Shown: piece by piece, positions 45,401 through 64,000 of the stretch | How the letters are laid out: every line of letters starts with the position of its first letter | Position numbering within the stretch: position 1 is the first letter of the stretch | Source of the DNA: Elusimicrobiota bacterium | Lineage (GTDB): Bacteria; Elusimicrobiota; Elusimicrobia; 2-02-FULL-39-32 | DNA length: 64,000 nucleotides | Direction of reading: 5' to 3' | NCBI GenBank assembly: GCA_016180425.1 | Contig: JACPBF010000001.1 | Coordinates: 341,381 to 405,380 of the forward strand | Made by a program: the position numbers

Positions 45401-48400
45401 TGGTATAGTTTTTTTTGGGAGGGAGCATATCACCGTAATATGTTCTTATTAGCCATTTTTATTTTTGCTATTAGCCACGCCTTTTGCCATCGTAAAGAAA
45501 GGATTTATTCTTTACTTTTATGTTCGCTCTTGGGAGGGGTTCTGGGATTACTTATTGGGTCACCAGCAAAACCAACTTGGTATGTAATTTTTATTTTTCC
45601 TTTCTTAAGCATACTCACAACAGCGGCTTTAAAAGATTGGTTCTCTTGTTCATTCTTCAATAAAACAGTATCTGTAGGACTCATTTCCCTGCTAATAGTT
45701 TTTTTTAGCATAGAAAGCTCTCATCGCTTTAAATTCTACAATTCACACTATTATGATTACATAAAAAAAATAAAAGCCTTCCTGCCAAATAACGCAATTA
45801 CACTTGCTACGGATAATTTATGGTTTGGGCTGAAAGATCATACTCGGTTTATCCCTCACCACTATATTGGAAATAAAGAGCGCATGGATAGCCATGGTAT
45901 GGCACAAACTTTTTACTATGGAAAATATGACGATTTTTTAAAGAGACAAAAAATTGAATACGTTATAGCGGATCAAGAGATATTGGGATGGCCTCAAAAC
46001 AAACACAATCTAATACCATTCTTAGAAAAATATGGGCATCTAGTTGCAACAATTAATGATCCTTTTTACAATTTCTCAGATTATTTATCTAAAAAAAGTC
46101 CGAGACCTCTTATTACTAGAATTTATAAAATTATTCTCAAAAAAGCGTAAAGCGAGTCAATAACTTAAATTCAGCACTTTAATTTTTACAAATATTTTTC
46201 TATAATTAAATGTTAAATAAAAAAATAATATTTTATCGTTAATGATTATAAACGAATGCCTTTCTGGAACAATTCTTCAGTACTAGTTACTGGAGCACAT
46301 GGGTTTACTGGTTCGCACTTATGCAGGGAACTGCTGAGAGCAGGAGCTAAAGTAAAAGCCTTTGTTAAAAAAAATTCTAATTTAACTAATCTCAACGATA
46401 TCATAAATAATATATCAATTTTTTATGGGGACGTCACCGATCTCAATAGTCTTGAACATGCAATGAGTGGTGTTGAATATGTCTTTAATCCTGCCGCTGT
46501 CGTGCCGGTAATGGAAGCAAGAAAATTTCCTCAAAAAACATTTGAGGTCAATAGCATCGGGCCCTTCAATACCGCGTCGGTCGCCAGTAAAATGAAAGTA
46601 AAAAAAATCCTTCACATCAGTACCTGCCACATCTATGGCAATCTTCCAGAAAGCGAACTACCAATTAAGGAATCAGCCATCCCCAAACCGGGGGACATCT
46701 ATGCCGCCTCGAAATACGCGGCGGAGATTTACTTGCGGCCACTCGTTGAGGAGGGAGCTCCCATTGTTTTCTCCCGAGCTTTTGCTAAGTACGGCCCCGG
46801 GCAAGGCCCTCACTTCTTAATTCCAAGAATCATAGATCAACTTCTTAAAGGAGAAACTCCTCAACTGGGAAGCCCAAAACCCACGAGAGACTATTCTCAT
46901 ATCGAAGACATCGTTAAAGGATATATGATGATCCTGGAAAAAGGAATCCCCGGAGAGATTTATCATCTCAGCTCTGAAAAAGAGATGAGTGTGGAAGAAG
47001 TATTTGATATGATTTCCAAGCTGTTAAACGTCAACACTAAACCCGTATGGGATCCTCGGTTAAGGCCACAAGATATTCTAAGGCTTTATGGGAATTCCTC
47101 CAAGGCGAGAAAACAACTCGGTTGGAAACCGGAAATCGATCTTAAAGATGGTTTGAAACAAACGATAGATTGGTGGAAAAAGAAAAGGGGTTCATGAATC
47201 AAAAAAAATTAACGGTGACGCTGATCGTCCCAACCATGAATGAAATTGACGGCATTCAATGGTTTATGTCTAGACTTAAAAATGAATGGTATGATGAATT
47301 GATTATTATAGACGGCGGATCAACGGACGGAACCCTTGAATACTGCAGAAAGAATGGTTACCCAATCTTTGTTCAATCAGCCAAAGGATTGACGATGGCG
47401 CAGGTTGAAGCGTTTAACCGTTCCACCAAAGATATTATCATTACCTTAAGCCCCGATGGAAACAGCATCCCCGAACTGATTCCAGTCATTGCGGAAAAAA
47501 TGCGGGAAGGGTATGACATGACGATCGCCTCTCGTTACATCGGGCCGGCAAAGAGTTATGACGACGATCGGTTTACTAAAATCGGAAATAAAATATTTAC
47601 GATGATGATGAACCTTCTTTTTGCCTCCAATTACAGCGATGTGCTTGTGATCTATAGGGCATATACCAGAGATGCGGTGATGAGAATGAGCCTGGATAAG
47701 TTGGAAGATGAAAATTGGATCAGAAAAAAATATATTCTGCTTAACAGCTGGGAGATCGCGTCCGCGGCGAGAGCAGCTCTGCTTAAACTAAAATGCGCGG
47801 AGATTCCCGGAGACGAGCCCAAAAGGATCGGGGGGAACAGGAAACTCTCCATCATCGTTCATGGAACCGCCGCATTGCTCCAAGTAATCTATGAATTTCT
47901 TCTGGCAAGATTCTATCTTAAAAAATAATTGAACGGATTAACGAGATGATCATATCAAGAACCCCATTTCGAATTTCCTTTTTTGGAGGGGGAACGGATT
48001 ACCCTGTTTGGTGCGATGAAAATGACGGCGCGGTTTTGGCGACGACAATCGATAAATACTGCTATGTCACCAGCAGATTTCTTCCGCCGTTCTTCGATCA
48101 TAAATTCAGGATCGCCTACTCGCTGATTGAGCATGTGAAAGATATCCGCCAAATCAAACATCCCTCGGTTAGAGAATGCCTTAAGTTTATGAAAATCAGC
48201 AAGGGAATTGAAATTCATCACGATGGAGATCTGCCGGCGAGAACCGGCCTGGGATCCAGTTCATCCTTTACCGTGGGTCTATTAAACAGCCTTTATGCCC
48301 TCAATGGACAACTGGTGAGCCATAAACAGCTGGCAAGAGACGCGATTTATGTTGAACAAAAATTAATTAAGGAGAACGTCGGCTGCCAAGACCAAATCTC

Positions 48401-63400: not shown

Positions 63401-64000
63401 AAAGATTCTTGTAACGGGAGGTTCTGGTCTTTTAGGGAATGCGTTAAAAGAGGTTTGCCCTGAAGCAATATATACAACTCGCAAAGATTCTGATCTTACA
63501 GATCTGTGTCAAGTCAGAAACTTATTTAAAAAGATCCAACCCCAAATTGTCCTTCATCTAGCCGCTAAAGTTGCTGGTGTCAAAACAAATGCAGAAAAAA
63601 TTGCGGATATGTATACCGTTAATACTCAAATCAATACAAATGTTCTTAATGTTGCTCAAGAATTTAAGGTAAAAAAATTAGTGGCAGTCCTATCCAACTG
63701 CGTATTTCAAGAAAAACCTCCACATCCACCCACCGAAAAAGATATCCATACTCAAATGCCTTTCAGAGGACACATGGGTTACGGTTATGCTAAAAGGATG
63801 CTTGATTTACAGATACATCTTCTTCATGAGCAATATGGATGCAATTTTACAAGCATCACCCCAGTTACGATCTTTGGGCCATTTGATAATTGGAACTTTA
63901 ATGAAGGCCATGTGGTCGGCGCACTTATTAATAAATGTTATACTGCTAAAATAAAAAATCAGCCATTTACCATCTGGGGTAGCGGTCAAGCTATAAGACA

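Follow-up and report, generated by a model that had tools for sequence, protein, structure and literature searches.

A 64,000-nt stretch of an Elusimicrobiota bacterium genome (assembly GCA_016180425.1, contig JACPBF010000001.1, positions 341,381 to 405,380 of the forward strand; hereafter the window, with positions counted from its first nucleotide) ends in a gene island that joins nucleotide-sugar enzymes to four radical S-adenosylmethionine (SAM) proteins. We put the probability at about 60% that this island encodes enzymes that make a rare nucleotide-activated sugar and deliver it to the cell envelope by the route proposed below. In our best reading, the sugar would be GDP-linked and yersiniose-like, a 3,6-dideoxy sugar that is 4-C-acyl-branched, C-methylated, and radical-tailored, and it is possibly heptose-derived. 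The predicted backbone follows known chemistry (a GDP-sugar, 3-deoxygenation, acyl branching by a thiamine diphosphate (ThDP) enzyme, and reduction), and its combination with a TokK-like methylase and a HemN-derived enzyme is undescribed in the literature that we found.

The open reading frame (ORF) list and Pfam and NCBIfam scans place 17 tightly packed plus-strand genes between 46256 and 64000, the last of them cut by the window end (Table 1). Intergenic distances range from a 37-nt overlap to a 156-nt gap. A first-pass annotation of this DNA had recognized the consecutive run up to the window end, with a count of eighteen genes where we find 17, and had interpreted it as a nucleotide-sugar tailoring island with radical SAM enzymes in a deoxysugar pathway. 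The main thrust of that interpretation holds on the grounds of synteny, active-site motifs, and a strong match of one radical SAM protein to TokK and CysS. Most of the genes it named are present, while the DegT-family gene at 62227 and the upstream membrane glycosyltransferase (GT-C) gene at 44543 had been missed. All four proteins that it assigned to the radical SAM superfamily carry one Cx3Cx2C motif each, at residues 198 (51521), 67 (54520), 264 (55970), and 195 (60180).

rSAM1 and its conserved gene neighborhood

The protein encoded at 51521, named rSAM1 here, marks the cassette and appears to be the only one of the four radical SAM enzymes that can be assigned to methylase chemistry with any confidence. 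It exceeds the Pfam threshold for B12-binding (41.3 bits, threshold 32.1), matches Radical_SAM with 55 bits, and has the cluster motif CPFSCTFC at residue 198. Among solved structures it matches TokK (7kdx, E = 6e-100, ~450 aligned residues) and CysS (9n1b, E = 3.5e-65). In TokK, W76 lies under the corrin and W215 between cobalamin and cluster, and both are typical of radical-methylating members (2026 review, PMC12931638). These residues align with W71 and W207 of rSAM1, and both are invariant across 25 family members. The NCBIfam model for KedN5 gives 274 bits against a cut-off of 700, with model positions 60–420 alone matched; because this cut-off is missed, rSAM1 is, on sequence grounds, a separate, unnamed sister family of KedN5 rather than a member of it.

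The B12-binding Rossmann domain, the Cx3Cx2C motif, and both tryptophans are features that rSAM1 shares with TokK and ThnK, which build the carbapenem C6 alkyl chain, with CysS (cystobactamid), and with KedN5. Enzymes of this type methylate sp3 carbons, often repeatedly. Their partners belong to beta-lactam or aromatic-acid pathways, whereas the partners of rSAM1 are GDP-sugar enzymes. GenK, GenD1, and Fom3 reportedly carry out class B radical SAM methylation of unactivated carbons on sugar-type or nucleotide-linked substrates; they are likened to rSAM1 by description rather than by sequence comparison, and they work in antibiotic pathways, whereas the cassette described here is widespread and appears to serve envelope glycans. 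The heavily C-alkylated sugar proposed in the first-pass annotation is conjectural; of the four radical SAM proteins, rSAM1 alone is assignable as a methylase with any confidence. A role for rSAM1 as a chain extender leading from 6-deoxyheptose to erwiniose or caryophyllose was dropped, since ThDP enzymes with longer 2-oxoacid donors explain those sugars (PMC9306805).

More than 5,000 database proteins match rSAM1 at E < 1e-10, and hundreds of them are 60–73% identical over the full length. With one genome scanned for each species, relatives were identified in 546 species genomes. Carriers are found in Elusimicrobiota, Omnitrophota, Planctomycetota, Acidobacteriota, Nitrospirota, Verrucomicrobiota, and cyanobacteria, and further in alpha- and betaproteobacteria, Leptospiraceae, Patescibacteria, and one Methanoperedens archaeon. 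Among the carriers in culture are Reyranella soli NBRC 108950 and Kovacikia minuta CCNUW1.

ORFs were called in 80 related loci (given L numbers below), compared with the window proteins, and clustered; 41 rSAM1 loci had full 10-kb flanks. Within these 41, extended short-chain dehydrogenases/reductases (SDRs) occur in 37, a ThDP E1/transketolase-type pair in ~31, an orthologue of the island's sugar kinase in 29 (45–76% identity), an aldo-keto reductase (AKR) in 24, a sugar-1-phosphate nucleotidyltransferase in 22, and a DegT-family protein in 20. The gene directly downstream of rSAM1 codes for an AKR in 34 loci and for an SDR like Fcl1 of the window in 11, so that a reductase holds this position in 45 of 52 loci with a recognized neighbor; its coupling to the methylase step follows from this placement. 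Because such neighborhoods are conserved in dozens of genomes from other phyla, the grouping of the island genes is functional and not a chance arrangement. The conserved neighborhoods elsewhere come with the sugar genes and not without them, in agreement with the first-pass view of a sugar cluster. One locus, L090 (JGI contig Ga0118719_1000081, 844–10461), is richer in radical SAM genes than the window cassette: it has five in seven consecutive genes (four B12-type and one HemN-like, with two SDRs between), followed by SDRs, a kinase, a DegT-family gene, a Wzm/Wzt exporter, and NeuB.

Table 1. Genes of the island and the glycosyltransferase gene directly upstream, with predicted functions
Gene and predicted product	Position	Strand	Basis
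GT-C membrane glycosyltransferase (PMT_2/GtrC-STM0557-like), 535 aa	44543..46150	+	Pfam; highly hydrophobic
SDR1, extended SDR of the NDP-sugar epimerase/reductase type, 313 aa	46256..47197	+	Pfam GDP_Man_Dehyd/Epimerase
GT2, polyprenyl-phosphate sugar transferase type, 244–252 aa	47170..47928	+	Pfam Glycos_transf_2, 56 bits
GHMP sugar kinase, HddA-like (heptose phosphate anomeric kinase type)	47946..48941	+	NCBIfam, PDB
Cupin with metal-binding HxH, 230 aa	48974..49666	+	Pfam MannoseP_isomer, 24.7 bits (cut-off 23.6), and Cupin_2
ThDP-dependent E1 alpha	49667..50554	+	Pfam E1_dh, 57 bits; NCBIfam pyruvate dehydrogenase E1 alpha, 114 bits, under cut-off
ThDP-dependent E1 beta	50518..51471	+	Pfam Transket_pyr and Transketolase_C
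rSAM1, cobalamin-dependent radical SAM C-methylase type, 654 aa	51521..53485	+	Pfam, PDB matches, Trp residues
Fcl1, GDP-fucose-synthase-like extended SDR	53482..54471	+	NCBIfam Fcl, 156 bits; PDB GDP-fucose synthase, 129 bits
HemN-like radical SAM protein, 481 aa	54520..55965	+	TIGR00538 score, HemN alignment, clade signature
rSAM2, class B (B12-binding) radical SAM protein of an unnamed family, 612–615 aa	55970..57817	+	Pfam
PhyH-type Fe(II)/2-oxoglutarate dioxygenase	57886..58629	+	Pfam PhyH, 79 bits; HxD at H118/D120
Fcl2, Fcl-like extended SDR with non-canonical active site	58656..59645	+	NCBIfam Fcl, 159 bits; motif G-L-G-W-I-K-R
Nudix hydrolase, nucleoside-diphosphate-X type	59632..60168	+	Pfam NUDIX, 68 bits; Nudix box intact
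rSAM3, radical SAM protein with weak N-terminal B12-like domain, 445 aa	60180..61517	+	Pfam/NCBIfam
DJ-1/PfpI protein with Cys-His nucleophile elbow (AICHG)	61673..62191	+	Pfam DJ-1_PfpI, 167 bits
ColD-type pyridoxamine-phosphate-dependent sugar 3-dehydratase (DegT family)	62227..63396	+	Pfam DegT, 228 bits; PDB; His for Lys
Fcl3, third Fcl-like SDR with canonical YGYAK	63393..64000 (cut; 309 aa in full, L085)	+	Pfam Epimerase, 123 bits, and NCBIfam Fcl, 109 bits (partial)

Predicted sugar backbone and proposed route

The GDP-linked, possibly heptose-derived precursor was assigned because of the HddA-like kinase, the GDP-type relatives of Fcl1, the GDP-sugar enzyme ColD as a relative of the DegT protein, and complete heptose gene sets in three related loci; the heptose part of this assignment is of moderate confidence. 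HddA is the best NCBIfam model for the kinase (146 bits over the full length, cut-off 600), and its four best PDB relatives are heptose kinases, including 3k85, 4n3o, and WcbL (4usk). From the known pathway to GDP-D-glycero-alpha-D-manno-heptose (GmhA, HddA, GmhB, HddC), the HddA-like kinase alone has a counterpart in the window, and the other members occur in related loci. Full sets of GmhA, kinase, HAD phosphatase, and nucleotidyltransferase are present in L002, L058, and L068. A HAD phosphatase occurs in 14 of 82 related loci, and models of the phosphoheptose isomerase GmhA are the best match, slightly under their cut-offs, for an SIS protein in the Kovacikia locus. Related loci also contain Fcl-like reductases and a GMD-like dehydratase, as in the capsule heptose modification of Campylobacter and Burkholderia, and an SDR that recurs in them, with the motif S(T/S)SEV(Y/F)G, is closest to GDP-mannose 4,6-dehydratase. 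Heptose-tailoring pathways described so far are not known to involve ThDP or radical SAM enzymes.

The precursor could instead be GDP-mannose or another hexose, with the GHMP kinase acting as a salvage-type anomeric kinase, which we regard as possible though not favored. The nucleotidyltransferase of the related loci is guanylyltransferase/HddC-like and scores higher against mannose-1-phosphate guanylyltransferase (180 bits) than against HddC (128 bits); GmhA is seldom found close to rSAM1, the known pathways of ColD and Fcl have GDP-hexoses as their substrates, and the kinase also matches fucokinase (99 bits). A GHMP kinase would, however, be superfluous on a GDP-mannose route, and the kinase matches and the three complete heptose gene sets point away from a hexose.

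3-Deoxygenation is suggested by the DegT-family protein at 62227, whose best PDB relative is ColD (2gms, E = 1e-48, ~170 bits, full length), followed by the CDP-sugar E1 dehydrase (3bcx). The histidine of its SFYFGHQ motif aligns with H188 of ColD (via the H188N mutant entry 3b8x) and replaces the catalytic lysine of aminotransferases. The same substitution was found in 27 of 34 DegT homologues of rSAM1 loci. ColD, the GDP-4-keto-6-deoxy-D-mannose 3-dehydratase of colitose synthesis, is thus the best solved relative and shares the histidine, but the score is limited to ~170 bits, the substrate of the window protein may be a heptose derivative, and no ColC reductase is assignable.

The neighboring E1 alpha/beta pair would add the branch. 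Its alpha subunit has a variant ThDP motif, GDA-x26-DN, in place of the canonical GDG-x(24-27)-NN, and no E2 or E3 partners (lipoyl or E3 genes) were found in the island by the ORF list and Pfam scans. Carboligation onto a keto sugar is inferred from the co-occurrence of the pair with the 3-dehydratase and SDRs, and from precedent. Avilamycin-type antibiotics use E1 alpha/beta pairs for sugar branching. Such pairs also branch sugars in paulomycin-type pathways (PMC4753412), and ThDP-dependent acyl branching of 3,6-dideoxy-4-keto NDP-sugars, followed by reduction, is the established chemistry of yersiniose-type sugars (PMC9306805). The first-pass annotation had correctly seen the pair and had thought it very unusual in a sugar pathway, which these precedents contradict.

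A ColD-like 3-dehydratase together with a ThDP pair therefore amounts to recognizable yersiniose-type acyl-branching logic. The 3-dehydratase, ThDP enzyme, and reductase of the pathways for yersiniose A and related acyl-branched sugars (YerE/YerF, ErwE) and of paulomycin-type pathways with E1 pairs have counterparts in the window (PMC9306805, PMC4753412). The differences are that yersiniose-type pathways are CDP- or dTDP-linked, whereas the relatives of the window enzymes point to GDP and a possible heptose precursor; that the yersiniose ThDP enzyme is of the YerE type, whereas that of the window is of the split E1 type; and that the window adds radical SAM enzymes, which we did not find described for yersiniose- or paulomycin-type pathways. 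The first-pass annotation did not recognize the gene order as any described pathway; this holds for the combination, which we did not find described, and not for the underlying logic.

The SDRs are less uniform than the three Fcl-like reductases and one Gmd/epimerase-like SDR originally listed. For SDR1, the best-scoring NCBIfam models are LegB (183 bits) and RmlB (148 bits), both under cut-off; PDB matches are mixed, and the motifs are HISTCHIYG and YAASK. Where RmlB has what we take to be its active-site motif, T-D-E, SDR1 has T-C-H; it is probably not a canonical 4,6-dehydratase, and the Gmd label is not retained. Fcl1 resembles GDP-fucose synthase and GDP-mannose epimerase among PDB entries. 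All three Fcl-like proteins match Fcl models as first annotated, but two of them do not have the canonical YxxxK tyrosine: Fcl1 has the motif F-A-G-W-A-K-R, and 25 of 25 of its orthologues have no Tyr four residues before the Lys. The Fcl1-/Fcl2-type motif is (F/Y)-x-G-W-(A/M)-K-R, with A, P, S, or G at that position in 25 of 25 Fcl1-type sequences (orthologues in L002–L059). This pattern suggests an atypical SDR subfamily tied to the methylase.

What follows is our inference on the product and substrate, the sequence of reactions, where and how often methylation occurs, the acceptor, and the parts played by the accessory enzymes and by three of the four radical SAM proteins. The HddA-like kinase would supply a sugar 1-phosphate, probably of a heptose, to a GDP-linked pathway. 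Such a pathway would also require a guanylyltransferase and a GMD-like 4,6-dehydratase, which many related loci have but the sequenced part of the island does not. The ColD-type dehydratase would remove the 3-hydroxyl of the 4-keto intermediate, and the E1 alpha/beta pair would attach an acyl branch derived from a 2-oxoacid at the keto carbon. rSAM1 may then methylate an unactivated carbon, once or several times, probably at a position adjacent to the branch carbonyl, and the Fcl1-type SDR, whose position is held by an AKR in most other genomes, would reduce the ketone. rSAM2, the HemN-like protein, and the PhyH-type oxygenase could form an accessory module for further radical or oxidative tailoring, to which rSAM3 may contribute, and the extra Fcl-like SDRs could set stereochemistry. 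Finally, GT2 would load the sugar on polyprenyl phosphate, and GT-C would pass it to an acceptor outside the cytoplasm.

Several observations weigh against this route. The family matches of the key enzymes are all under curated cut-offs, except those of the HemN-like and PfpI proteins. With the canonical tyrosine absent from Fcl1 and Fcl2, their reductase role is uncertain. No guanylyltransferase, GmhA, phosphatase, or canonical 4,6-dehydratase was identified in the window or the 1.3 kb past its end, and the start of the pathway consequently rests on related loci. These genes may lie just past the window end, since the SDR type that follows there often precedes a nucleotidyltransferase in related loci. 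A GmhA gene within 10 kb of rSAM1 was seen in just 5 of ~82 loci, in keeping with no more than a moderate heptose assignment. About 10 full-flank loci have rSAM1 with no ThDP pair nearby, so the methylase does not strictly depend on the acyl branch. No flippase of the GtrA or ArnE/F type was recognized.

The HemN-like protein and accessory genes

The HemN-like protein encoded at 54520 appears to represent a divergent, sugar-cluster-specific clade of the HemN/CgdH family. It scores 413.8 bits against the hemN equivalog model TIGR00538 (cut-off 324.95) and aligns with Escherichia coli HemN (1olt) over query residues 10–462, including the C-terminal domain, with 36% identity and 291 bits, against 71 bits for the class C methylase NocN. 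The HemN-like label of the first-pass annotation is therefore apt, and its extension to a class C methylase or cyclopropanase lacks direct support. Positions Y56, H58, C62/66/69, GGG111–113, E145, Q172, R184, and D209 of E. coli HemN, which we presume to be cluster and first-SAM ligands, are identical in the window protein and its 120 closest homologues.

A search of 1.8 billion representative proteins was used to survey the family, and 135 full-length sequences of the best 150 hits were aligned. Most of the 135 have RNFQGY or RNFMGY at E. coli positions 308–313 and Ile at 329. The window protein has WNSLGY and Tyr at these positions, and its nearest representatives have (W/Y)(N/T)SLG and a residue other than Ile at 329. 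Among the 120 closest homologues, Trp replaces R308 in 114 and Leu replaces Q311 in 115, with Ala or Ser at 310. F310, Q311, and I329 of HemN reportedly line the second SAM site (Layer et al.).

The gene neighborhoods are equally distinct from those of heme synthesis. Homologues with 53–57% identity lie within multi-radical-SAM sugar clusters in 7 of 7 independent loci inspected, from at least four phyla (L007, L016, L030, L065, L090, L091, and L092, comprising four related loci and three long contigs picked for size alone). They adjoin a second B12 radical SAM gene, usually with a PhyH oxygenase gene near, and the PhyH gene co-occurs with the HemN-like and rSAM2 genes in related loci. The homologue lists of the HemN-like protein and rSAM2 have 15 contigs in common (contigs equated by equal size). 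No heme genes were found in the window. One 742-aa protein on a single 2.4-kb metagenome contig (P0154 in L089) is a predicted HemN-like/PhyH fusion; it could be a true fusion or an assembly or frameshift artifact.

That 54520 codes for an ordinary oxygen-independent coproporphyrinogen III oxidase, placed in the island by accident, is highly improbable. The equivalog cut-off is passed, the public NCBI name is coproporphyrinogen oxidase (HemN), and the full-length alignment keeps the presumed ligand positions, all of which an ordinary HemN would explain. It would not explain an identity of only 36% to E. coli HemN, the replacement of the near-invariant RNF(Q/M)GY/I329 signature throughout the window clade, or the repeated occurrence in sugar clusters with rSAM2-type genes and without heme genes. 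A housekeeping HemN identity was rejected on the clade signature and synteny. Insofar as any radical SAM protein of the island falls into a well-characterized non-sugar family, it is this one, which passes the hemN cut-off yet belongs to a divergent clade within sugar clusters and so does not overturn the sugar-tailoring interpretation. A more specific proposal, which we consider speculative and rather unlikely, is that the product is an envelope sugar of a new class: a GDP-linked 3,6-dideoxy-heptose with an acyl branch, the side chain of which is extended through iterative cobalamin-radical methylation and then remodeled by the HemN-derived enzyme, perhaps through methylene transfer or through oxidative decarboxylation that leaves a vinyl group.

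The two remaining radical SAM proteins have remote characterized relatives. rSAM2 passes the Pfam B12-binding threshold (51.8 bits, threshold 32.1) and matches Radical_SAM with 69 bits; its best NCBIfam match is the Sden_1168 P-methyltransferase (166 bits, under cut-off). rSAM3 matches Radical_SAM with 78 bits, and class B families align over its N-terminal region, where B12-binding reaches 22.5 bits against the threshold of 32.1. Of the three cobalamin-binding class B proteins counted in the first-pass annotation, 51521 and 55970 consequently stand and 60180 is uncertain. NCBIfam matches of rSAM3 are PhpK (115 bits), BchE (101 bits), and HpnJ (99 bits), all under cut-off; its best PDB match is AprD4 (60 bits), and homologues occur in L065 (67%) and L049 (46%). 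For rSAM2 as well as rSAM3, the closest relative with a solved structure is AprD4, a sugar-acting radical diol dehydratase that is not known to use cobalamin. rSAM3 may not be a methylase.

It is conceivable, if still doubtful, that most of the radical SAM enzymes are non-methylases, with AprD4-like diol dehydration, epimerization, C-C ring closure, or chain rearrangement leading to a deoxygenated or carbocyclic product. The remote matches of rSAM2 and rSAM3, their common relative AprD4, and the B12 domain of rSAM3 being below confidence are consistent with this, and non-methylation chemistry is documented for class B enzymes, among them BchE and OxsB (PMC12931638, PMC13598231). The strong match of rSAM1 to TokK and CysS, with both hallmark tryptophans kept, argues against it. 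Non-methylation chemistry may hold in part beside the proposed methylation route, as nothing counts against it for rSAM2 and rSAM3.

Three smaller genes complete the island. The cupin was originally called a phosphomannose isomerase (PMI) type, and although its Pfam match passes, it does so marginally; the protein is a candidate isomerase or epimerase. Cupin homologues (40–66% identity) accompany window-type E1 subunits in L003/4, L005, L008, and L049, together with a PfpI gene except in the short L005. The PfpI gene itself co-occurs in L003/4, L008, L049, and L092, and its protein passes the NCBIfam PfpI subfamily cut-off (165 bits, cut-off 139). The Nudix protein had been read as a GDP-sugar hydrolase, which is too specific: its best NCBIfam match is NudE (66 bits), with NudK at 32 bits, both under cut-off.

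Proposed delivery, envelope context, and significance

Two glycosyltransferases suggest how the sugar might be delivered. GT2 matches AglJ (95 bits), dolichyl-phosphate hexose transferase (49 bits), and ArnC (37 bits) models of NCBIfam. The GT-C protein has weak Pfam matches to PMT_2 (33 bits), DUF6056/GT_STM0557_N (28 bits), and PMT (22 bits) and is a probable periplasmic transferase that uses a polyprenyl-phosphate-linked sugar; a PMT_2 gene is also present in the related locus L091. The pairing of a small GT2 with a GT-C recalls the ArnC/ArnT and GtrB/GtrC systems, from which the island differs in its weak GT-C matches and in having no recognized flippase. Capsule and O-antigen genes in related loci, namely CpsB with a NusG paralogue, Wzm/Wzt with NeuB, and GT4, GT2, and PMT_2 genes, point to an envelope glycan, with the cassette feeding assembly systems that differ between genomes.

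If the glycosyltransferases were unrelated neighbors, the product could be a diffusible small molecule, such as an aminocyclitol- or nucleoside-like natural product or a sugar-derived cofactor. We consider this improbable. It is true that the characterized relatives of rSAM1 (TokK, CysS, and KedN5) all belong to secondary metabolism, that sugar branching by E1 alpha/beta pairs is best known in antibiotic pathways (PMC4753412), and that some rSAM1 loci have no glycosyltransferase within 10 kb. In the window, however, GT2 lies inside the operon-like run with GT-C directly upstream, and no polyketide synthase, nonribosomal peptide synthetase, or aglycone genes were seen. The capsule and O-antigen genes of related loci, and a spread over 546 species from many phyla, fit envelope glycan diversity instead.

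The island probably starts further upstream than first described, at the GT-C gene, and would then extend from ~44.5 kb to past 64 kb. G+C content is 0.44–0.45 at 48–54 kb, a stretch that contains most of the island's best-conserved genes, compared with 0.33–0.40 across the 46 kb upstream of the island. A 20.8-kb metagenome contig (Logan contig SRR12113425_40707, equivalent to window positions 44496–65315) is identical over the whole island and supplies the rest of Fcl3 and one extra SDR (312 aa), which follows it. This contig ends near the left edge of the island and ~1.3 kb past the window end, and its break points may reflect strain variation around the island. A scan for promoters and terminators yielded 58 matches compared with 43.7 (SD 6.9) in shuffled sequences, a marginal excess. 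The two best sigma-70-like promoter matches in the island (11/12, extended -10 TG) are at 51468–51496 and 54485–54513 on the plus strand, in the short gaps directly 5' of rSAM1 and the HemN-like gene.

Further envelope-related genes were observed upstream. Two small plus-strand ORFs at 43729–44522, between TypA/BipA and the GT-C gene, have a common C-terminal motif, KLCT.V, and one has a weak match to the Leptospira adhesin Lsa14 (32 bits); the two, at 43729 and 44040, have a lipoprotein/adhesin-type look and are probably small lipoproteins. A Leptospira origin of the DNA, hinted at by the Lsa14 match, is overridden by a 100% identical protein in an Elusimicrobia genome assembly. Twenty kilobases upstream of the island, at 22208–29634 (plus strand), the window has a complete Arn-like operon for lipid A aminoarabinose. 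It codes for an ArnB-like aminotransferase (429 bits), an ArnC-like GT2, a formyltransferase, an ArnD-like deacetylase, a PAP2 phosphatase fused to an ArnT/PMT-type GT-C (735 aa), and an ArnA-C-like SDR with STSEVYG. A second pair of GT-C (PMT_2) and GT2 genes is found at 30979–32948 (plus strand). Three GT2/GT-C pairs therefore occur within ~25 kb (23385/24490, 32175/30979, and 47170/44543), which suggests several polyprenyl-phosphate-dependent envelope modifications.

Full-text literature, with most subscription journals outside its coverage, contained no description of this cassette or of a TokK-like methylase with a HemN-derived enzyme in a sugar pathway. To our knowledge, nearly all known cobalamin radical SAM methylases come from the biosynthesis of antibiotics, cofactors, or lipids. 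If the proposed route is correct, a TokK-like methylase would take part in primary envelope glycan synthesis in at least 546 species, mostly uncultured, and C-alkylated, branched sugars would be a so far unrecognized component of environmental bacteria. The island enzymes could then become tools for radical alkylation of nucleotide sugars. A clade annotated as oxygen-independent coproporphyrinogen III oxidase appears to serve sugar tailoring, which is likely a systematic misannotation. Should the HemN-derived enzyme indeed remodel a sugar, the HemN/CgdH clade proper would gain its first substrate other than a tetrapyrrole, and hundreds of proteins annotated as coproporphyrinogen oxidase would be sugar-tailoring enzymes.

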